20,000 bases of DNA. Origin: an uncultured virus (IMG/VR IMGVR_UViG_3300016467_000248). Its lineage: Duplodnaviria > Heunggongvirae > Uroviricota > Caudoviricetes. The notes beneath the pieces are model-generated. The model was not told the DNA's origin, ran no database searches, and was given only the letters and a program-made list of their open reading frames with translations. A program made the position numbers and the translations under genes. This document shows, piece after piece, positions 2,733 to 20,000 of the stretch. Position 1 is the first letter of the stretch, and every line of letters starts with the position of its first letter. The stretch lies in IMG/VR virus record IMGVR_UViG_3300016467_000248; one strand, 5' to 3'.

Positions 2733-4754
2733 ATGGCTTTGGTTGTTGCGGATCGTGTTCAGGAGACCACGACTACTAGCGGTACGGGTACATTCAGTCT
2801 CGCTGGCGCTGTAGCTGGATTCAAGACGTTCGTATCTGGCATTGGTACGACAAATACGACGTACTACGCGGCTTATGACCAGACCGCTCAGGTTTGGGAA
2901 GTCGGGCTAGGCACAGTTACGTCTGGGTCTCCAAATACGCTTTCTCGTGACACAGTTCTATCCAACTCTTCGGGCACAACGGCTAAGATCAGCTTCGCTG
3001 GTAACACGACGTACGTTTGGTGCGACTACCCCGCAGGTAAAGTTGTTATTAAGGACGCATCTGGATTCGTTGGTATCAACGCTACTCCAGTGGTTCAATT
3101 TCAAATCGGTTCTGGTCAAGAGGTTCTTGATGTAGCGGGCGCGTTCAACACATCAAAATTTAACTCGCAGGGGACAGCGTGGAGCTCAGCTTCAGCCCTG
3201 CCGTCTATTGTCTTTAATGCCTCCGCAACGGATCGCCCTGAAGTTTCATGGATTAGAGGAGCACGGTCATACCCTGAATTTTCAATCAGACAGCATACAA
3301 CTTTAGATTCTGGAGGGCAGTTTTGGGCTGGTGCAGGAACAGCAGCGCCATCTTTAGTGTACAGTGTCACAAGCTCAAGCCAAACATGGGCTGTATCAGG
3401 CTCAGATGTCATGTATCTAGCGGGTACATCATTAGGAATTGGGTCTTCTCCAGCAGTAGACAGGGGAATACAAACCTCAAGAAGCGCAAGTGGCGCGACT
3501 ACGTGTTATGGAATTGTTTCGGGAGAAGCAGTTCAATCCGGTGTTACTTCTGGGTATAGCGGGTTTCTTTCTGCGCCAGCAACCGCCGCGGCGGCGTTTA
3601 CGCTATCAAATCTGCGTCATTTTTATGCGAATGGAGTGACAGTCGGAGCAGGCTCTGCCATTGCAAATCAATACGGGTTTTTTGTAGAAAGCAATCTCAC
3701 CGGAGCCACAAGCAACTACGGCTTCTACAGCAACATAGCATCGGGCACAGGCCGCTATAACTTCTACGCGAACGGATCTGCGGATAATTATTTTGCTGGG
3801 AACGTCGGGATCGGCACTACGGCGGCGGAAGGCAACCTCCACGTTCTTTCAACTTCTGCTGGAACTGTAACAGCAAGCATCAACGGCAACCTTGGTGTAT
3901 TTGAGTCTGGCTTATCTAACGGCCTAAGTATCCTCGTTCCAGATGCTTCTACATCAATCATCATGTTTGGTTCCCCTTCGAGCAATCGAGGGGCAGAAGT
4001 AAACTGGAGGTACAGCACAACCACAATGCAGGTTGGGACCAGAACGGCGGGTGGCATTCTTCAGTTGATGTCTGGAAATGCGACTGTCGGCGTAACTCTC
4101 GATGCTTCCGGTGGTTTTGGAGTAGGTACGGCTTCGCCTAGCGGTATAGTAGGTATAGTTGGCGCTGCTAGTGACACGTGGGCAACAAGCGGCAGTGGAG
4201 GGCTTGTACTAAATGGGTCTAATGCTGGTAACGCGGTATCAACGATAACTACTTATCTTGATACATCTTCAATACGCATTGGGTCCGGGCTCACCCAAAA
4301 AACTGGGATACTTATCAATGGATCGACATCCGCAGCAGGCTCTACTGTTCAGGTAAGCACCGGAGGCTCAGCCAGAACAACGGTGGACGCCATAGGCAAC
4401 CTACAAGTCTTAGGCGGTCTGGTCATGCCGGGACAGGGCGCTCCAACTTCAAAGAATGCAAATGCCACTTTGACTGGCGCGGAACTAATTACAGGTCTTT
4501 TAACAGCAACAGGGGCTGGCCCCACAACAGTAAGTTTCCCTACGGCGGCAAATATAGAAGCAGCACTTACATGGGGATCAACAAACACATGTATAGATTT
4601 TTATGTAATCAACACTTCTGGTGGTGCTGTAACTATGAATGCCAACGGCAATACTCAGGTAGGAGGAACATTTTCTGTAGCAGTAGGAACTTCAGCGCAA
4701 TTTAGAGTCCGTAGAACGGCAGCTAGTACGTTTACGATTTATAGGCTTGGTTAA
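2733..4754 (+). CDS. Tail fibre / receptor-binding protein (673 aa)
   Basis: AGGAG at 2722-2726. N-terminal ADRVQETTTTSGTG...WEVGLGT...LSR anchor-like domain, repeated GxVGIG fibre motifs, Gly/Ser/Thr rich. Confidence 0.8.
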   Translation: MALVVADRVQETTTTSGTGTFSLAGAVAGFKTFVSGIGTTNTTYYAAYDQTAQVWEVGLGTVTSGSPNTLSRDTVLSNSSGTTAKISFAGNTTYVWCDYPAGKVVIKDASGFVGINATPVVQFQIGSGQEVLDVAGAFNTSKFNSQGTAWSSASALPSIVFNASATDRPEVSWIRGARSYPEFSIRQHTTLDSGGQFWAGAGTAAPSLVYSVTSSSQTWAVSGSDVMYLAGTSLGIGSSPAVDRGIQTSRSASGATTCYGIVSGEAVQSGVTSGYSGFLSAPATAAAAFTLSNLRHFYANGVTVGAGSAIANQYGFFVESNLTGATSNYGFYSNIASGTGRYNFYANGSADNYFAGNVGIGTTAAEGNLHVLSTSAGTVTASINGNLGVFESGLSNGLSILVPDASTSIIMFGSPSSNRGAEVNWRYSTTTMQVGTRTAGGILQLMSGNATVGVTLDASGGFGVGTASPSGIVGIVGAASDTWATSGSGGLVLNGSNAGNAVSTITTYLDTSSIRIGSGLTQKTGILINGSTSAAGSTVQVSTGGSARTTVDAIGNLQVLGGLVMPGQGAPTSKNANATLTGAELITGLLTATGAGPTTVSFPTAANIEAALTWGSTNTCIDFYVINTSGGAVTMNANGNTQVGGTFSVAVGTSAQFRVRRTAASTFTIYRLG

Positions 4755-5251: not shown

Positions 5252-6160
5252 ATGTTTGGTAACTACGCTTTCTCGCGGAGGCCCTTTGCTGGACAGAGCG
5301 CAGAGATTCTTGCGCTCACCGCGACTGAGAACGTTACCGTTGCTGACACAAGCTCTCAGACTTCCGCGTTTCTTCAATCACGTACAGAGAACATTACTCT
5401 AGCCGACACAAGCTCTCAGACTTCCGCGTTTCTGCAATCTTTAGCTGAAGGGATTACACTTGCTGATGTCATCACACCGGGGGTGGTATTTACTGTAAGC
5501 CTGACTGAAGATTTTACATCTGCGGATACAAGCTCTCAGGTCTTTGCATTCCTTCAATCACGCGCAGAAAATATCGCTGTCGCTGACTCTAATACCCAGA
5601 CATCGACGTTCTTATTTACGCAAGCTGAAAACATAGATCTTGCGGACGCAATCAACGGGTCCGCGGCTTTTTCTGCTACGCAGGTTGAAGGGTTTACTCT
5701 TGATACTGCTCTGGCTATCGCCGTCCAGTTCACCGCATCTGCTACGGAGAACATGTCATTAGCTGATGTCATCACTATTGGTATCGCGTACTCGTTTACG
5801 GTTACGGAACCGTTTACCTCATCTGAATCAGCGACAATAATTCGGGGTTTTATATTTAGCGCCACAGAGTCCATAACTGTCGCCGATGCCGCTGCTACTG
5901 TATCGCAGTTTCTTTTTGCTCCTATTGAAAGCATCACGGTAGACGCGCAGTACAAAACGCTGTACTGGTTGAAAGTGCCGGATACTCAGGACGCGAATTG
6001 GGGCCCGATTAATGACACGCAAGTGCCTAGCTGGATAACGGTAAATGACGGACAAACTCCTAATTGGGGGCCTATCAGCCATACGCAAACGGCGAACTGG
6101 AATACAATTGACGACAACCAAACCCCAGACTGGGTACCTGTAGAGGACGAACAACCATGA
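5252..6160 (+). CDS. Repeat-rich phage structural protein (302 aa)
   Basis: MFG...FS..PFA N-terminus, about 10.5 tandem 20-aa units (xE.I...AD), then six 11-aa W-x4-D-x-Q units. Confidence 0.7.
   Translation: MFGNYAFSRRPFAGQSAEILALTATENVTVADTSSQTSAFLQSRTENITLADTSSQTSAFLQSLAEGITLADVITPGVVFTVSLTEDFTSADTSSQVFAFLQSRAENIAVADSNTQTSTFLFTQAENIDLADAINGSAAFSATQVEGFTLDTALAIAVQFTASATENMSLADVITIGIAYSFTVTEPFTSSESATIIRGFIFSATESITVADAAATVSQFLFAPIESITVDAQYKTLYWLKVPDTQDANWGPINDTQVPSWITVNDGQTPNWGPISHTQTANWNTIDDNQTPDWVPVEDEQP
5324..5947 (+). repeat. Coding tandem repeat, 60-bp (20-aa) period
   Basis: Unit starts fall at 5324+60n up to 5924. GACACAAGCTCTCAGACTTCCGCGTTTCT is identical at 5345 and 5405, with a diverged copy near 5525. 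Confidence 0.9.
5966..6157 (+). repeat. Coding tandem repeat, 33-bp (11-aa) Trp-initiated units x6
   Basis: WLKVPDTQDAN/WGPINDTQVPS/WITVNDGQTPN/WGPISHTQTAN/WNTIDDNQTPD/WVPVEDEQP. Confidence 0.85.
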
Positions 6161-6531
6161 GCTTTATTCTCAGTCAGAAGTCATTACGCCGTCTTGAAGG
6201 TGTCAATCCTGCATTAGTGCAGGTAGTCAAACGGGCCATACAGATCACGCCTATCGACTTCATCGTCGTGGAGGGTCTCCGTACCAAGGAGCGCCAAGCC
6301 TATCTCTTTGAGAAAGGTGCAACCAAGACCATGAACTCAAGGCATCTGACTGGGGATGCAGTCGATCTGGCCCCCATCGTAAATAACAAAGTCTCATGGG
6401 ACTGGAAGGATTTCTACCCTCTGGCTGAAGCTGTGAAGAAGGCTGCTAAAGAAGTCAAGGTTGAGGTAGAATGGGGCGGCGACTGGGAGTCTTTTAAAGA
6501 CGGACCGCATTGGCAGTTACCTAGAAAATAG
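6157..6531 (+). CDS. Endolysin, M15 family Zn peptidase (L-alanyl-D-glutamate peptidase type)
   Basis: EGLRT..RQ, SRHLTGDAVDL (S-x-H-x6-D) and WGGDW...DGPHWQL motifs of T5-lysin-like M15 peptidases. Confidence 0.93.
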   Translation: MSFILSQKSLRRLEGVNPALVQVVKRAIQITPIDFIVVEGLRTKERQAYLFEKGATKTMNSRHLTGDAVDLAPIVNNKVSWDWKDFYPLAEAVKKAAKEVKVEVEWGGDWESFKDGPHWQLPRK

Positions 6532-12911: not shown

Positions 12912-14276
12912 ATGGGCAGTCCTTCTCCAGCGTCCCCGGTTACGCAAACAACCCAAATCTCCCAGATGGATCCAAGGCTGTACCAGTGGCTTTACGGTAC
13001 GGCAAACTCTCCGGGACGACTGCAGATTGCCAACGCATCTATGCTGGGTAAGACCATGCAGGGCGTGCAGAACGCCGACCCTACGGCGCTCGCGGCTTGG
13101 TATAACGTACCGAAAGGCACTGATCTGGCCCAATTCCAGTCCCACACTGGCGCTATTAACCCCGGGCAGGCGGATCCCAGCCTCATGCAGTTCCCCGGAA
13201 AGTCTGTTACTCCTCAGGACTACTACAAGCAAGCAACCGCTGGAGAAAAGGAAGATAAAAAGAGCCCAACGTCAACCGCTATTGCGGCCGAAGGCGGAGA
13301 GTTAGATGCCTATGCACAGGGTGGGCGCCCAAAACCCAAGCCTAAAGCGGAGCAACTCGCTCAGCCTACCGCTGACTTAAACGAATATGGTTTAACTGCT
13401 TCTCAACAGAGACGGTGGGATAACTACGAAAAAATGCGTAATTCGGGTAAGAAATTTACCCAGCAGCAGATTCGTGACTACAACTCGATGCGCGATACGC
13501 GTACTCAGTATCAGCAAGCAAATCCTAAATCTTCTTCAGGGAACACTCCGCTGTCTCTTGCTGACGCTCAGATCGGCGTAACGCCTTATTTTGACCCTCA
13601 GAAGATGCAGTCAACCAATCCCTACTACAATCAGGCGATTGATGTTCTTCGAGGCATGGGTACTCAGCCCTCACAATATGGGCAGGCTACAGATTTGTAC
13701 GGCCAAGTCGGTAAGGCGTCATGGACTGACCCGGGTGTGGCACAGAGATACATGAATCCTTACATAGAGACGGCATTAAAGTCTCAGGAAGACCTCGCTA
13801 ATCGTCAATTTGCACAACAGCAGAATCAGCTTCGTAGTCAGGCGGCGGGTAGAGGAGCCTTTGGTGGATCCGCTTCAGCTTTAGCTGAACAAGCTTCGCA
13901 GCAGAATCAAAACTTGAATATGCAGAACCTTGTAGCCCAAGGGATGAACCAAGCCTACAGTCAAGGTATGGGGCAATTTGGTAACGAGCAGCAACAGCGT
14001 CTCGGGGCCGCTCAAGGCTTGGGCGGGATGGGAAATAGCATAGCAAACTACAACCAGAACCTTTTGCAGAACTGGGGAGCCGCAGGCAACACCCTGCAGA
14101 ACCTCGCTCAGAACTACTACAATCAGCGCCAGCAGAGCGCCCAGAACATCTGGGGTGGTGTCAACACCGCGACGCAGCCGGCGACGGGCACACTGCTCGG
14201 ATCTCCGTGGGGTACGTCCTATCAGGGCCAGTACCAGCAGCGTAAGAAGGGTGGCAAGCTGAGCATCAAAGTATGA
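12912..14276 (+). CDS. Internal virion / DNA transfer (pilot) protein (454 aa)
   Basis: GAGGT SD. MGS...TQTT N-terminus, YMNPY...GAFGGS motif and long Gln/Asn/Ala-rich helical region, typical of podovirus ejection proteins. Confidence 0.75.
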   Translation: MGSPSPASPVTQTTQISQMDPRLYQWLYGTANSPGRLQIANASMLGKTMQGVQNADPTALAAWYNVPKGTDLAQFQSHTGAINPGQADPSLMQFPGKSVTPQDYYKQATAGEKEDKKSPTSTAIAAEGGELDAYAQGGRPKPKPKAEQLAQPTADLNEYGLTASQQRRWDNYEKMRNSGKKFTQQQIRDYNSMRDTRTQYQQANPKSSSGNTPLSLADAQIGVTPYFDPQKMQSTNPYYNQAIDVLRGMGTQPSQYGQATDLYGQVGKASWTDPGVAQRYMNPYIETALKSQEDLANRQFAQQQNQLRSQAAGRGAFGGSASALAEQASQQNQNLNMQNLVAQGMNQAYSQGMGQFGNEQQQRLGAAQGLGGMGNSIANYNQNLLQNWGAAGNTLQNLAQNYYNQRQQSAQNIWGGVNTATQPATGTLLGSPWGTSYQGQYQQRKKGGKLSIKV

Positions 14277-17260
14277 AAAACCCAGTCCAGAAAATGTTAA
14301 AAGCCGCGAGCCAGATGAAGAACAATCCTCAGCTGGCTCAACGTGAAGCGCAGAGCCCGAACAAGGTCAATGCAATCGCCGCACAGATGGTCATCCCGGA
14401 GCAGCAGGCCATGCAGAATTCAAAACCTATCCCTCACCCTGTCGGTTCAGTCCTCATGCAGAAACTCGCGCAGGCGCAGCAGGCGGCTATGGCAGCCAAG
14501 ATGCCCCAGCCCAGTGAAGGCGGTATCGCTCAGATGGCCGCCAAGGGTGGCGTGTTGAAGTTTGCGAAGGCTGGTGAAGTCCCAAAGGGGCGTAGGGGTA
14601 GGAAGAAAACTGAAACTGTGGCACAGCAAACGCAGAAAGAGGATGTGCAAAAGTTTGTGCGGGATTTTGGCGCCGGCCCGAGTTCGGCCCCGCTTACAGA
14701 CCCTATGGTTGAGGCTTTTAACGCGGCAAGAAACGAATCTGTTGACACGCAAGTAGACGCCGCTAATCGTCAGAGGCAACAAGCCTTAGGCGAGGGGATT
14801 GGGAAATACCAAGAGGCGCTTGCTAAACAGGAAAGAGTCCGCCCCGAGGTGGAGGGCCTAAGGAGAATAGGAAAGAATGTTAAATCTGCGTCTACGATAA
14901 CTCCTGAGCGTAAAAAACGACAAGAAGCAATTAATACGCCTAAGCCTAAGAGAGACTTTCTATCTGCTGAAGACGTATCTGAGCAAGACCAACACGCTGC
15001 GGAAAGAGAAGCGTCCCGCGCTAGAGCTAATGAAAAGCGCATTGCGGCAAGGCGTGGTGACACTAGCTTGTTACAAAGTGCTGAAAAAGCGGCGCCATTA
15101 GACCCCAGCATGGCTAAGCTAGGTAGTTTACGTAGCAAAAATATTCCTTCCGCACAAGATGTAATAAAAGGAGAAATAAGGGGCAAATCCTCCGTCATAG
15201 GCGAGAAGGGCCGAGTAGTGCCTAGATATCCGGCGACTCCAGAGCAGAAAAGGCGACGCGCCAAGGTGTCCAGCGAGCTGGGCTTGCCCGAGAAAGGAGG
15301 CATTGCTTCTGCGGCTTCAAAAGAGGCTAGGGAATACATGGCTGGAAAAGAGCAGCCCGCAGCTCCTAAAACAGAAAAGCCAGCTCCCAAACCCGATATT
15401 TCTAGGGAAGAAGCGGATACTCGTTTGGCTTCAGCCCATGCTGAGGGACAACGTAAAAAGACTGCGCAATCCCCTGCCACCATGATGGGGGATATTAACG
15501 ATGCAGCGCACAGCATTATTACTTCTAACCCGGAATGGGCGGACAAAATAGCTAAGGCCAGCGCGGAGTTCAACGCTAAAAATCCTAATGCTACGACTTC
15601 TGAGCGAGGAGCATATCTTAGGAGCATAGCGCCGCAGGAGGCTATTGAATCTCTGCTTGGGCAACTTTCTCCCACGCTGGAAAAGCACGGCCTTCTATTC
15701 AGTAAGGAGGGCGGCATAGGCGCACCAATGATGGAGGCTATAGATGAAGTGGCGCCAAAAGCTACCCCCCAGAGCGCGTGGAATGAGCCTAAGGATTTCA
15801 AACGCCCCGCAGCCGGACCATCTAGATTAGGCGACACGATAGAAGGAGCTGTTAATAAAGGCGCCATGGGCTTGCAGGCCTACAGCGCTCTTGCGCCCAT
15901 AGCTAACGTAGCGTTGGATCCTAATAAATCCAAAGCAGATGTTGCGAGAGAAGCTAAGTATCAGGCTGTGCAATCGAGCCCAACTATCGGCATAGGAAGT
16001 GCCGTGGGAAGCGGAATCGGAGAGAGCATAGATAAAGTTAACGAGTGGTTGGGCCGTCCTAAAACGGACTATGGCGCTGCTCTGTCTGCGTTGGGAGCCT
16101 ATGGCGGCAAAGGTTTCTCTGGGCTCACGCGCGATGTTATGCGTGGCAAGGGAGACGAGTCTCCTAACTTAACTGCTAAACAAACCCTTCCAAGCGTAGG
16201 GTCTCTAGTAGATACCGGAGTAGAAAAAGCCAAAGGCCTGTACAGCGGCATCGAGAAAGCCATGATGGACGAGCGCCTTCCCGCTGATAGAGAAAGGGAA
16301 GAAGAGTTACAAGCCCTTTTGGCGCAGGAAGAAGCCTCGCGTGGGGCTCCTGCAACACAGCAGACTGCAGCACCATCTACGCCCAGCGGAACCGCTACGC
16401 CTGTCGATAAAACGGCATTGTCAAGGGTCGGTAAAACGGCAAACCCAATGCCGTCAATGACGGAACAAAATCCTCAAGGTAGAGCACCAGCTGGACAAAC
16501 CGTGGGTTATCAGCCCTCAGCTGGCGGAGCAGCTGCTCCGTCTGCACCGCAGGCTCCTAGAGCTGAAACGCAAGCCACTCAGGACCAGTATGCCGGAGAC
16601 ACGAGCGAAGGCACGCCAGAAGGCGCCGTACGCGAACTGATGAAGCTCCGTGGGCCCGGGTATTCTTACTCTCCAGAAGTCATGGGTATGTTGAAAGACG
16701 CCCGGGATGAGGACAGGCAGGCTACCGCGCTCAGTATGCTGGCTGGAATTGGTGCTGGTCTGGCCAACCGTGATCGGTATGCTGGCGCTCATGACGCCGC
16801 TCTTCTGGCTAATCAGGCCTTTACTTCTGGTCGTGAGCGGGAAGACGCAGCACAGCAGCGGTTCCTGCAGGGCATCATTCATAACGAGCAAGTGCCGTTC
16901 GAACAGCGTCAAGCAGCGTACGAGATGTACACCAAGATGCAGATGGCTGCGGCTCAGAATGAGGCGTTGTATGGTCGAGCGCTGCTTAGCTCGGACGCGC
17001 GGAGGTACGCGGCCAACATGGGGTATGCGGGACGAGTCGCGAGCGGAGGTGGAAGAGACTGGGCTGAAAAGCAAGACATCGAAGGGCTCCATATCATGCT
17101 TAAGTCCATAGACAAAGAGCTGGAATCTAATCCGAACGACCCTTTTCTAACGGCTCAAGCGAAAGAAATTAGAAATAGGCTGGCTAACCTAAGCGGCCTA
17201 TCCGGTGGTAAAGAATTAGGGCAAACTGCACAAAAGCCTATTGACCTCGACATAAGGTAA
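14273..17260 (+). CDS. Large internal virion / ejection protein (995 aa)
   Basis: ATGA overlap. Q/A/M-rich N-terminus with EGGIA..AAKGG...FA, charged low-complexity middle, C-terminal L.MLAGIGAGLA segment plus coiled coil. Lies between the pilot and SLT genes. Confidence 0.7.
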   Translation: MKNPVQKMLKAASQMKNNPQLAQREAQSPNKVNAIAAQMVIPEQQAMQNSKPIPHPVGSVLMQKLAQAQQAAMAAKMPQPSEGGIAQMAAKGGVLKFAKAGEVPKGRRGRKKTETVAQQTQKEDVQKFVRDFGAGPSSAPLTDPMVEAFNAARNESVDTQVDAANRQRQQALGEGIGKYQEALAKQERVRPEVEGLRRIGKNVKSASTITPERKKRQEAINTPKPKRDFLSAEDVSEQDQHAAEREASRARANEKRIAARRGDTSLLQSAEKAAPLDPSMAKLGSLRSKNIPSAQDVIKGEIRGKSSVIGEKGRVVPRYPATPEQKRRRAKVSSELGLPEKGGIASAASKEAREYMAGKEQPAAPKTEKPAPKPDISREEADTRLASAHAEGQRKKTAQSPATMMGDINDAAHSIITSNPEWADKIAKASAEFNAKNPNATTSERGAYLRSIAPQEAIESLLGQLSPTLEKHGLLFSKEGGIGAPMMEAIDEVAPKATPQSAWNEPKDFKRPAAGPSRLGDTIEGAVNKGAMGLQAYSALAPIANVALDPNKSKADVAREAKYQAVQSSPTIGIGSAVGSGIGESIDKVNEWLGRPKTDYGAALSALGAYGGKGFSGLTRDVMRGKGDESPNLTAKQTLPSVGSLVDTGVEKAKGLYSGIEKAMMDERLPADREREEELQALLAQEEASRGAPATQQTAAPSTPSGTATPVDKTALSRVGKTANPMPSMTEQNPQGRAPAGQTVGYQPSAGGAAAPSAPQAPRAETQATQDQYAGDTSEGTPEGAVRELMKLRGPGYSYSPEVMGMLKDARDEDRQATALSMLAGIGAGLANRDRYAGAHDAALLANQAFTSGREREDAAQQRFLQGIIHNEQVPFEQRQAAYEMYTKMQMAAAQNEALYGRALLSSDARRYAANMGYAGRVASGGGRDWAEKQDIEGLHIMLKSIDKELESNPNDPFLTAQAKEIRNRLANLSGLSGGKELGQTAQKPIDLDIR

Positions 17261-17264
17261 ACGC

Positions 17265-20000
17265 ATGGCAACTTCTACTGGTTCTAGGGCCCTTGATTTC
17301 GCTTTGGGTATCGGGGCCTATGCCCCTCAGTATGACTTGCCTGAAGAAGCTCCTCAGGAGGGCGGCATCGCGTCCGCCCTTCCAAGTCGCGGAGGACCTC
17401 CCAGCAAAAACGCTGAAGCTTATGCTCCGCTAATCAAAGAAGCAGCTGCCCGACATAAGATACCCTATGAGCTTCTCATGGGCATTGCTCAGACAGAATC
17501 CAGCTTCAATCCGGCTGCTGTAGGGCCTAAGACAAAGTATGGAACAGCCAAGGGCATGTTCCAGATGATCGACTCCACGGCTCGTCGGTACGGCGTACAA
17601 GATCAGTTTGACCCAGCTCAAGAAGCGGATGGCGCTGCGCGCTATCTCAGCGACCTAATGAAGCGCTACAACGGAAATGCCGAACTAGCCGCTGCGGCGT
17701 ACAACGCTGGCGAAGGTAATGTGGACAAGTACCTCAGTGGTCGAGCGCCACTTCCGGCTCAGACTCAGGATTACGTTCCTAAAGTTCTTGGGCACGCAGC
17801 GCAGTTTGGCGCTTCTCCATTGGCGCAGGCTCCTCAGTCTCGTCAGCCATCTAATCCAATAGTCCCGCCACCGGAGGGTATGCAAGCTGTCTGGCTGTCC
17901 AACGGTACGCAGCTCAATGCTCCAGCGGGCATGACTCTGCAGCAGATCCACGAGAAGATGCAGAAAAACCATCCTGAGTTGGAGAATGTTGTTCCGACTC
18001 GAATCATGCAAACCGGCGATCAGACGTTTAACGTACCGTATAACATGCAGGACGACGAGGCTATGCACCACCTCGTCAACCAAGGGCTCATGAAAGACCC
18101 AATGGCAGCCAAGGGTGGCCGAGGTTGGAACAATCTGGTTAGCGGTCTCGAGAGGAGCATCGGCAACGCGGCGCTGGCTATGGGCAATCCTGAGATGGCC
18201 CAGCAGTTCTATGACAAAGCCAAGGCCGGCGAGTATCAGATGTACGAGTCTGAGGTCGAGGCGGCGAAGCGCAAAGGGTTTTTACCGGGCCTCAAGGCTG
18301 AGGCCATGCAGAATCTGGTCTATCCGGGCATGGAGATGCTCGGTGAGTTCGCTCCGGCTATGATACCTGTCGGCGGCGTCGCTGGCACAGCGGCCAAGAT
18401 TGCGGCTATGGTTCCGTCGTCGACTGGCTCCATCATGCAGTACGCCAAGGAAAGGGGCGTCGATCTCACGCCGACAGAAGCTTTGAGAGAGGGTATCCCG
18501 CTCGCGGCGGTCAGTACCGTAGGTCTGCCTTTGAAGGGTCTTGGGTTGGGGGCTGGTGCTGTAGAGAAAGGCCTGCTCCGCAGAACCGCTGAAGCGGGGG
18601 CGACCAACTTCGCCAAGAACGTCGCGGCTATGGGCACGATGGAAGGGCTCCATAAGGAGGCCGCTGGTGAGCCTGTGCTCCCTCAGACCCCCGAAGAAAT
18701 GGCTAGGCTCGCAGAGTCAGCCGCGTGGTTTGCAGGTCCTCATGCTCTGCTCGAAGGGGCCATGCCTCGTGAGCGCCCGGAGGCGCCGGAAGTCGCGCAG
18801 CGCGAACCTGTTCGGACCCCAGAAAGAGTATCTGAGGTCGTCGAGCCAGAAGTGGCCGGAGGCCCAGAGGTTGCCCCCGCTGTTAGAACCGAGCTGCAAA
18901 ACATCGGTGAGATGTATGGCCGGCATGTAATGGAAGCCGAGGCTCGGGGCGAACCACCCATGAGCCCGGAAGAGTTTATGGCTCAGTACAAACCTGAGCC
19001 TGTAGTGCAGGAAGAAATTAAAGACGAGCTCGCCCCGGGTGACATCGAGGCGGCTCCATCTTCTGCACCTGTTCAACCCAGCCCGTTCGTGCGTAAAGCA
19101 CAGGAGAGAAAGAATGCCCAGCAAGAGCCCAGCACAGGCGCGCCTGATGGCGGCAGCGGCGCACAACCCGGCTTTCGCGAAGAAGGTAGGGATCAAGCAG
19201 TCGGTGGCCAAGGAGTGGAACCAAGCGGACAAGGGGTCAAAGCTCCTGAAATCAAAGTCCCGGAAAAGAAAGTAGCCGCTGGTAAGCCACCTACTACTGA
19301 ACTCGCTCCACTGCAGGAAAGGGACTTTACGCCAGAAGAAGTTCAACAGATTCATGCGTGGCAAGACGAAGGTATCAGCCATAGAGATATTGCTAAGAAG
19401 CTCAAGATCCCCTATTTCAACTACTTGGTTAAAGCCGGCAAAGTTAGGGCCGGCGAAGGCGATCTAGGTAGTGTCATCAAGCCGGGCACTATGAAAGAAG
19501 GTGAGTACGCTACTCACGCCGAGTTGGAAAAACTGTCCGAAAAAGACCAGCTCAGCTATCTGCAGCTAATGGGTAAAACCAAGGAGGAGATGGGCGAGCG
19601 GCTTAAGCTGTCTGAAGAAGAAGTTACGAACAAGCTCCAAGAGTACGGCTTGCCTGACACAGAAGCTGAGCTTCAGCGGAAAATGTCCGAGGAGAAGAAA
19701 AAGGCGATCGAGGCTGACATTGAGCACCGCGCGCAGTTTCGTGAAGAGGAGCCTGCGCCTGTTTTGTCCGAAGGGTCCATTGAACGAGCAAGAGCAAAGA
19801 ACGAAAGGAGTACGGTCGTATTCGATCGGTCATCAAAAAGGGACCTCATAAAAAGTCGTAGCACAATTAGAAGGCGGGCGGAATCGGAGGCTAAAAAAGC
19901 GGGGACTATGGAAGAAGTAGTGCCCAGATCATGGCCTGAGATTGAAGCGGATCTCACGTCTACTTTTAATGACCTCCAGCGTTTACGCGAAGAAAAGGCA
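17265..20000 (+). CDS. Giant internal virion protein with N-terminal soluble lytic transglycosylase (SLT) domain; T7 gp16 analogue; 3' truncated
   Basis: Not in the track because it has no stop in the window. ATG at 17265 follows TAAGGT and the frame runs to 20000. SLT motifs: IAQTESSFNP (catalytic Glu codon 17496-17498), AKGMFQ, AAAYNAGEG, TQDYVPKV (about 17421-17790). Confidence 0.9.
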   Translation, partial: MATSTGSRALDFALGIGAYAPQYDLPEEAPQEGGIASALPSRGGPPSKNAEAYAPLIKEAAARHKIPYELLMGIAQTESSFNPAAVGPKTKYGTAKGMFQMIDSTARRYGVQDQFDPAQEADGAARYLSDLMKRYNGNAELAAAAYNAGEGNVDKYLSGRAPLPAQTQDYVPKVLGHAAQFGASPLAQAPQSRQPSNPIVPPPEGMQAVWLSNGTQLNAPAGMTLQQIHEKMQKNHPELENVVPTRIMQTGDQTFNVPYNMQDDEAMHHLVNQGLMKDPMAAKGGRGWNNLVSGLERSIGNAALAMGNPEMAQQFYDKAKAGEYQMYESEVEAAKRKGFLPGLKAEAMQNLVYPGMEMLGEFAPAMIPVGGVAGTAAKIAAMVPSSTGSIMQYAKERGVDLTPTEALREGIPLAAVSTVGLPLKGLGLGAGAVEKGLLRRTAEAGATNFAKNVAAMGTMEGLHKEAAGEPVLPQTPEEMARLAESAAWFAGPHALLEGAMPRERPEAPEVAQREPVRTPERVSEVVEPEVAGGPEVAPAVRTELQNIGEMYGRHVMEAEARGEPPMSPEEFMAQYKPEPVVQEEIKDELAPGDIEAAPSSAPVQPSPFVRKAQERKNAQQEPSTGAPDGGSGAQPGFREEGRDQAVGGQGVEPSGQGVKAPEIKVPEKKVAAGKPPTTELAPLQERDFTPEEVQQIHAWQDEGISHRDIAKKLKIPYFNYLVKAGKVRAGEGDLGSVIKPGTMKEGEYATHAELEKLSEKDQLSYLQLMGKTKEEMGERLKLSEEEVTNKLQEYGLPDTEAELQRKMSEEKKKAIEADIEHRAQFREEEPAPVLSEGSIERARAKNERSTVVFDRSSKRDLIKSRSTIRRRAESEAKKAGTMEEVVPRSWPEIEADLTSTFNDLQRLREEKA
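19102..19106 (+). promoter_or_regulatory. Shine-Dalgarno site (AGGAG) of the nested gene
   Basis: Same motif and 6-7 nt spacing as at the starts 2733, 6542 and 10241. Confidence 0.65.
19114..19275 (+). CDS. Nested +1-frame small basic protein (53 aa)
   Basis: AGGAG 7 nt upstream of ATG. MPSKSPAQARLMAAAAHNPAFAKKVGIKQSVAKEWNQADKGSKLLKSKSRKRK resembles a small protein family recalled as free-standing genes in uncultured phages. Confidence 0.75.
   Translation: MPSKSPAQARLMAAAAHNPAFAKKVGIKQSVAKEWNQADKGSKLLKSKSRKRK

Follow-up and report, generated by a model that had tools for sequence, protein, structure and literature searches.

Small phage genes that have their own start and lie wholly inside a larger gene, in its +1 frame and on one mRNA, are known from Rz/Rz1 of phage lambda and from 18.5/18.7 of T7, and in lysis the host protein has Rz1, a lipoprotein, as its partner. 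Overprinting in phiX174 (E in D, B in A, and K) likewise yields two proteins from the same bases under asymmetric constraint, and the nested gene in these cases is young, lineage-restricted, and created de novo. To our knowledge, out-of-frame nested phage genes are textbook rarities, and in nearly every known example the nested gene is the younger of the two. We describe a 53-codon gene that lies in the +1 frame of a giant virion protein gene of an uncultured caudoviricete virus (IMG/VR record IMGVR_UViG_3300016467_000248), of which a stretch of 20,000 nucleotides (nt), hereafter the window, was analyzed. Homology, nesting across lineages, and signatures of selection in both frames, all obtained by computation, make it likely that segment 19114-19275 is a true dual-coding region, with the small gene independently initiated inside the gene of a giant polyvalent virion protein. 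Polyvalent proteins of phages, according to Iyer et al. 2017 (PMC5512222), are of the packaged or ejected class.

A small gene in the +1 frame of a giant virion protein gene

The 5' part of the host gene, encoding a giant SLT-bearing polyvalent virion protein, fills 17265..20000 on the plus strand (912 codons) and runs off the window. Within it, on the same strand, the nested gene (19114..19275) comprises 53 codons and a TAG in the +1 frame of the host, opening with ATG at 19114-19116 and closing with TAG at 19273-19275; it is recognized by homology to phrog_16759 and by its substitution pattern. Direct reading of the sequence places a Shine-Dalgarno (SD)-like AGGAG at 19102..19106 on the plus strand, 7 nt 5' of the nested ATG. 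The peptide of 53 amino acids (aa) has 14 K/R and 2 D/E residues and ends in the tail KSKSRKRK, and LMAAAAHNPAFAK is an example of a peptide encoded in the small frame. Read in the host frame, 19113..19274 on the plus strand corresponds to host aa 617-670, NAQQEPSTGAPDGG...PEKKV, a "shadow" segment co-encoded with the nested gene; the host-frame reading over the nested gene is KNAQQEPSTGAPDGGSGAQPGFREEGRDQAVGGQGVEPSGQG. A sequence-only reading of this DNA had reported AGGAG-N7-ATG followed by a 53-codon +1 open reading frame (ORF), and its coordinates, its translation, and its K/R and D/E counts were all reproduced, as was the host-frame reading that it quoted for the same bases (QERKNAQQEPSTGAPDGGSGAQPGFREEGRDQAVGGQGVEPSGQG).

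The nested peptide matches phrog_16759 at an E value of 4.6e-22, with protein residues 1-50 on profile positions 1-50 of 58, which places the nested ORF far beyond chance. Two longer profiles labeled "virion structural protein", of 845 and 263 aa (phrog_22033 and phrog_25121), are matched over their first 50 positions as well. Searching 5.8 billion protein clusters returned 1907 relatives of 29-93 aa (120 of them listed, at 69-93% identity) and another 1526, of 94-2000 aa, in which the domain is fused to longer sequence; identity is 66-93% among the matches listed in both size classes. Stand-alone homologues, which the sequence-only reading had suggested, thus exist, as the 1907 short proteins and 40 free-standing copies of at most 70 aa among 167 tblastn hits attest. 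Named members include the 52-aa gene of Stenotrophomonas phage BUCT555 and gp383 of Pseudomonas phage 201phi2-1, and the N-terminus of coliphage 121Q gp51 (263 aa, annotated as a virion structural protein) is the family domain. The family spans podophages to jumbo phages (121Q, 201phi2-1) and is wider than the giant host-protein family, indicating that the small gene is older than the nesting.

An alignment of 33 sequences that include the window peptide has 15 invariant columns (M1, P2, S3, Q8, A9, A13, A16, H17, F21, A22, G26, V31, N36, D39, and G41), all of which are kept by the window peptide. Family members are ~50-60 aa long and follow the pattern MPSKS...AHNP.FAKKVG...N.ADKG, a conserved 42-residue helical core, before a basic, lysine-rich tail. 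The window peptide has this form, with its own ATG, a length of 53 aa (~46-70 aa in the family), and a basic C-terminal tail, and its AlphaFold model consists of three helices with a mean pLDDT (predicted local distance difference test) of 75. No description of the nested gene or of the small family was found in the literature. One candidate identity was DUF3008 (PF11450), which we take to be a small basic helical phage or bacterial protein with a similar N-terminal pattern, and one neighbor cluster in ESM-Atlas has PF11450 in 37% of its members; hmmscan did not confirm this link for the family, matching DUF3008 in 0 of 33 members even at E<=10.

Nesting is shared by four lineages

Loci were fetched for the best 80 of 590 confirmed viral and the best 80 of 239 confirmed metagenome entries, and the 167 tblastn hits in them were classed by script. 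The domain forms the N-terminus of a longer ORF in 103/167 hits and is free-standing (<=70 aa) in 40/167; a further 10/167 are in-frame and internal or have a long open upstream region, 6/167 are cut by a contig end, and 8/167 are overlapped by a long same-strand ORF in another frame. Six of these 8 overlapped hits have the giant-gene arrangement (the window, L004 and L005 on one contig, L006, L086, and L090), and L168 is an additional contig with it. In the other two, L017 (3227-3409) and L165 (1122-1313), ORFs of 216 and 328 aa run across the small gene on its own strand but out of frame with it; they are possible additional cases of overlap that have no relation to the giant gene.

Nesting in an identical relative frame is thus found in four lineages, namely, window/L004, L006, L086/L168, and L090. 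The full host ORF is available in L004, an IMG/VR contig 98% identical to the window, where it encodes 2171 aa and the nested peptide is 100% identical. Across the five nested contigs, the host ORFs encode 2171, 2117, 2254, 2645, and 2288 aa, with the nested start at host residues 617, 670, 862, 862, and 782, and the nested gene is always one base ahead of the host frame. The host proteins of the L006, L086/L168, and L090 lineages share only 31, 25, and 19% identity with that of L004, and their N-terminal modules differ, with SLT in one, Phage_lysozyme2 in another, and none detected in others. Between the L004 and L006 proteins, identity is 28% over 1160 C-terminal residues and 53% over the 89 residues that overlap the nested gene. 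The DNA of the window and L006 can be aligned from ~5 nt before the ATG to the TAG, while the flanks are not alignable, and L006 carries a 15-nt insertion that preserves both frames. G003, the complete genome that holds L006 (68,984 bp with terminal repeats), contains the nested copy as the only copy of the family.

Signals at the nested start recur as well. SD-like 4-mers (AGGA, GGAG, or GAGG) are present at -16..-5 of the nested ATG in 5/5 nested loci, representing the four lineages, compared with 7-13% of positions in the host-gene background, and they lie in 5' DNA that is non-homologous between lineages (window and L006 are not alignable there). Small-frame stops lie 0-2 codons 5' of the nested ATG in 4/5 loci (L006, L086, L168, and L090). 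These stops define the start and rule out that ribosomes in the host frame reach the small frame by slipping +1.

Two other readings were considered and rejected. An RNA element was rejected on the codon periodicity of the substitutions together with the lack of an Rfam match in 18800-19600. A split ancestral arrangement, consisting of a lysin gene, the small gene, and a gene for the C-terminal module, is likewise rejected, as tblastn at E<=1e-5 detected the giant protein's relatives at none of the other small-gene loci. L087, where the closest of the free-standing copies lies, has an unrelated context.

The domain also occurs in frame and internally in phage proteins of 340-1110 aa (L034, L042, L047, L059, L064, L095, and L157); these copies begin at family residue 3, with E-K/R replacing M-P, and the phage proteins that host them are uncharacterized. 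DUF6321 (PF19846) is a recurrent partner of the small domain, to which it is fused in P0131 and P0185 (128 aa), and at L121 (1249-1719) a DUF6321 gene lies directly 5' of a free-standing copy and overlaps its start.

Both frames show signs of selection

Six pairs among the four nested lineages were compared, and every nucleotide difference was scored for what it changes in either frame. Most differences fall on third positions of the small frame; counts at codon positions 1, 2, and 3 are 4, 2, 10; 5, 4, 8; 10, 9, 19; 6, 6, 12; 9, 7, 16; and 11, 13, 18 for the six pairs, over 42 codons. Substitutions that are silent in the small protein and change a host residue number 11, 8, 17, 12, 15, and 16 per pair (~77 possible), and those that are silent in the host and change the small protein number 0, 1, 5, 1, 4, and 6 (~88 possible). 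This excess of small-silent, host-changing substitutions is the opposite of what a relic or a host-frame-selected motif would leave. The comparison in both frames that had been proposed in the sequence-only reading, with 8-17 small-silent versus 0-6 host-silent substitutions per pair, therefore speaks against conservation in the host frame alone. Inside the ORF, the window and L004 differ at two positions, both silent in the small frame and both changing the host residue (G to S and V to I).

The host frame over the small gene is kept open as well. Of 161 non-nested homologues, only 2 lack stops in the first 45 codons of the host-equivalent frame (median ~4 stops), and among those with a GC content of 0.55-0.65 it is open in 1 of 32. 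Random synonymous recoding of the small gene with the codon usage of the window left the host frame open in 0.29% of 20,000 trials. T occupies the third position in 1 of 53 codons of the nested gene, compared with 28% in the window's genes. The rarity of an open frame after recoding and this depletion of T suggest that the codons of the small gene are shaped to let the giant frame pass. Together with the closed host-equivalent frame of the non-nested homologues, the substitution asymmetry identifies the small protein as the ancestral coding frame. Where it is nested, the small protein evolves under purifying selection, and stops are kept out of the host frame that overlaps it.

Over the nested gene, the host-frame stretch is rich in G, P, Q, and E, changes its amino acids freely, and contains no stops. 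The sequence-only reading had proposed that a pre-existing gene was captured inside a tolerant linker. Two parts of that proposal hold, since the G/P/Q/E-rich stretch evolves freely yet stays open and the small gene pre-dates the nesting; as to the route, the small gene was either captured into the linker or crossed by extension or fusion of the host frame over a pre-existing gene.

The arrangement recurs among giant proteins and is missed by gene callers

The host-frame shadow used as a query retrieved 18 giant proteins of 1541-2413 aa, and a phmmer search with the C-terminal module retrieved 1029 relatives. Among 164 giant proteins, the shadow is recognized by blastp in 41, and 43 are codon-compatible with an intact +1 family member at 31-42 of 42 positions, compared with a background maximum of 27 over 269,485 offsets; the shadow is present in 16 of the 20 closest long representatives. 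These shadow counts were inferred from protein sequences, and their DNA basis is the five nested loci. None of the giant proteins (0/164) contains the domain in frame. On these counts, roughly one in four of the 164 related giant virion proteins has the arrangement, and nested genes can be searched for at the protein level by means of such a shadow peptide. The shortest of the 18 proteins, P0253 (1541 aa, with the shadow at aa 33), resembles a truncated call of the full-length form.

Searched as exact entries among ~15 billion predicted proteins, 0/5 nested peptides were found, though the host proteins are present; gene callers do miss the nested gene, as the sequence-only reading had supposed. 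The giant gene of L004 contains 39 alternative-frame ORFs of at least 40 aa on both strands, of which only the nested one matches any PHROG. The wider suggestion that linkers of giant genes often hide cargo genes was not borne out, the other 38 of 39 ORFs in this one scanned gene (L004) having no PHROG match. On the minus strand of the window, a 221-codon ORF at 18717-19382 spans the nested gene; its counterpart in L004 is without a PHROG match, and since antisense frames are often open over free-standing homologues too, this ORF is probably an effect of composition.

Proposed mechanism and function

Ribosomes on the giant gene would read through the segment and make it a Gly/Pro/Gln/Glu-rich spacer between the variable N-terminal and the conserved C-terminal modules. 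Others would begin at the internal SD-like motif and ATG of the same late mRNA and produce the 53-aa basic protein, so that a 6-kDa basic helical protein would be made beside the giant protein. Translation from this internal SD and ATG is predicted from the sequence. Selection would retain the small-protein sequence and would separately hold the host frame free of stops by limiting the synonymous codons available to the small gene.

The small protein is probably virion-associated, a proposal that we make with modest confidence, and it could be, for example, an internal head protein or an assembly or packaging helper made together with the giant protein. Such a role is favored because the domain heads annotated virion proteins, because free-standing copies have a scaffolding neighbor in three loci, and because the host gene is of the packaged or ejected class. 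In these three loci (L010, L032, and L049), a head scaffolding protein is the next gene. A Pfam scan of the ORFs 5' of free-standing copies did not confirm a portal identity.

More speculatively, the spacer of the giant protein may have arisen when the host gene read through, or fused across, an older free-standing gene, so that the host overprints its guest. The nesting would then have persisted in dozens of lineages because the giant protein requires the small one as a partner made in cis, such as a helper in packaging or ejection or a DNA-binding protein injected along with it. We regard this extension as possible but doubtful; if it is true, one mRNA would supply both proteins in a fixed ratio. 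A bolder sub-variant would add a -1 slip at the lysine-rich end that also yields an isoform joining the small domain to the C-terminal module.

Weighing the alternatives

Several observations weigh against a functional dual-coding region or against the role proposed for its product. The start signal taken by itself is not beyond chance, as AGGAG-N4-9-ATG occurs 5 times in the window versus 3.74 expected, and 60 of 200 shuffles contain at least 5. For function, the nested peptide has no sequence matches in Pfam (at E<=1), NCBIfam, or PDB, and a BFVD fold search gave at E<=0.05 only members of its own family, uncharacterized or unnamed, and beyond that only weak matches. The neighborhoods of free-standing copies are mixed, comprising terminase, tail proteins, HNH endonuclease, and exonuclease (30 of 42 neighbor proteins scanned, 23 loci), and the "virion structural" labels come from annotation. 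Among 50,697 phage records, no cultured phage with the giant gene was found at E<=1e-10. The pairwise substitution counts are small, and they are not independent since the four nested lineages share ancestry. Nested pairs are also less diverged at synonymous sites than free-standing pairs of equal protein divergence, and one of them has 8 third-position differences versus a minimum of 10 among 169 comparable free-standing pairs. Constraint from the host frame fits this low synonymous divergence, and recent exchange of a cassette between lineages fits it too.

Such an exchange is the core of one unlikely alternative, in which the small gene is a passenger or recently exchanged cassette that was spread by recombination or is functional elsewhere and is not expressed or needed when nested. 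Identity between lineages is limited exactly to the ORF, as in an exchanged cassette, and in three pairs only 8-12 of 42 third positions differ, a low synonymous divergence given that the hosts share 28% identity. However, the rank of small-gene divergence (2, 4, and 10 aa from the window) tracks that of the hosts (31, 25, and 19% identity), and the site and frame are identical in all nested lineages. The substitution asymmetry shows continued purifying selection while nested, SD-like motifs are retained although the surrounding 5' DNA is non-homologous, and the complete genome G003 has no second copy.

Improbable, too, is an isoform linked by frameshifting, in which translation from the nested start would slip by -1 in the lysine-rich end (AGA AAG TAG) and fuse the small domain to the ~1500-aa C-terminal module. 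A -1 shift from the small frame reaches the host frame by construction, and fusion of the domain to longer sequence is seen in the 1526 proteins of 94-2000 aa, among them the "virion structural protein" profiles of 845 and 263 aa, in which it is N-terminal. The family is nevertheless often free-standing, at 46-70 aa (40/167 hits). The small gene ends in AGA AAG TAG in the window, AAA AAG TAG in L006, AAA AAG TAA in L086, AAG AAG TAG in L168, and AAG AAA CGG TAG in L090. A-AAG thus precedes the stop in 4/5 nested loci (three of the four lineages), but the AAA CGG TAG of L090 leaves a conserved -1 slip site unsupported, and no slippery heptamer is conserved at the end of the small gene across the nested loci. 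Lysine codons are expected there anyway in the basic tail of the family, and no stimulatory structure was seen, the search of 18800-19600 being one against Rfam, which gave no match, and no dedicated fold being run.

Another reading, that selection acts on the host-frame peptide because it serves the giant protein as a motif, with the +1 ORF as a by-product, is highly improbable. The shadow is the best-conserved stretch of the giant proteins outside the C-terminal module, and it was picked as a locus-search pattern from among the most conserved parts of the giant-protein alignment. Host-silent changes are nonetheless the rarest class (0-6 per pair) and small-silent, host-changing ones the commonest per possible site, and the host-equivalent frame is closed in non-nested homologues, with a median of ~4 stops. 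Finally, an assembly or sequencing frameshift that hides a domain truly in frame in the giant protein, for which the in-frame internal copies in other phage proteins of 340-1110 aa offer a precedent, is effectively refuted by six contigs (the window, L004, L006, L086, L090, and L168) that agree in frame relation and have small-frame start codons, stop codons, and upstream stops, and by the absence of an in-frame domain from all 164 giant proteins.

The giant host gene and its surroundings

In the host protein, aa 56-158 (17430..17738, plus strand) form an SLT lytic transglycosylase domain that matches Pfam PF01464 at an E value of 2.1e-26; the PHROG families matched by the protein comprise lytic tail proteins and endolysin-bearing internal virion proteins. 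With its N-terminal SLT lysin and large conserved C-terminal module, it resembles internal or ejection proteins. Its layout is that of a polyvalent protein, being giant and multidomain, with an enzymatic head domain, and encoded among virion genes. LPD38 is present in the L006 and L086 proteins and LPD39 in the L090 protein; no LPD-type domain was detected in the L004 protein at E<=0.001, though its C-terminal module is homologous.

N-terminal modules are swapped among the giant proteins P0244-P0261, L004, L006, L086, and L090, which carry SLT (PF01464), Phage_lysozyme2 (PF18013), PF18760, or none. The C-terminal module stays homologous across these swaps, and the nested gene marks the module junction. 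An H-E-x-x-x-H stretch in the C-terminal module is invariant in a four-sequence alignment (H77, E78, and H82) and reads HEIGVH in L004 at aa ~1116-1121, outside the window. This stretch, which no profile matched, could be the zincin-like processing peptidase (HExxH) described for polyvalent proteins.

The window as a whole presents a podophage-type structural module with an SU10-type adaptor, tail-fiber-like genes, and an M15 endolysin. The SU10-type adaptor protein is encoded at 1014-1670 (PF24175, E 1.7e-26) and the M15 peptidase endolysin at 6157-6531 (phrog_465, E 2.6e-63). Two large ORFs of 454 and 995 aa lie just 5' of the host gene, and no family match was found for the window ORFs at 2733-4754, 12912-14276, and 14273-17260.

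Comparison with known nested genes

The giant host resembles the polyvalent proteins (PMC5512222) and the T7 gp16-type internal virion proteins with SLT in being multidomain, in its N-terminal lysin, and in its virion-gene neighbors; some of its relatives carry LPD38 or LPD39, and it has the H-E-x-x-x-H stretch. A passage search of PMC5512222 gave 0 occurrences of "frameshift" or "overlapping", and no out-of-frame nested gene at a module junction is described there. Members of phrog_16759, phrog_25121 (121Q gp51), and phrog_22033 are annotated as free-standing or N-terminal, and the nested state is not annotated. The locus connects polyvalent proteins of the packaged or ejected class with a small protein that is uncharacterized yet very widespread, and it is a specific example, open to experiment, of coding capacity that phage structural genes can hide.

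Like Rz1, the nested gene is wholly embedded in the +1 frame of a larger phage gene. However, its peptide has no Cys, lipobox, or hydrophobic signal sequence, and the lack of Cys means that it is not a spanin; its host is a 2171-aa virion protein. It further differs from Rz/Rz1 in that the nested family is far wider than the host family and that the host frame over it is derived. The nested partner is an old, exceptionally conserved small gene that has thousands of relatives, at 60-90% identity, and no Pfam family. In contrast to the overprinted genes of phiX174, it is the nested gene here that is old and widespread and the overlapping host segment that is novel and loosely constrained, and judged from these sequence comparisons, the age relation of classical overprinting is reversed, an old nested gene being read over by a derived host frame.

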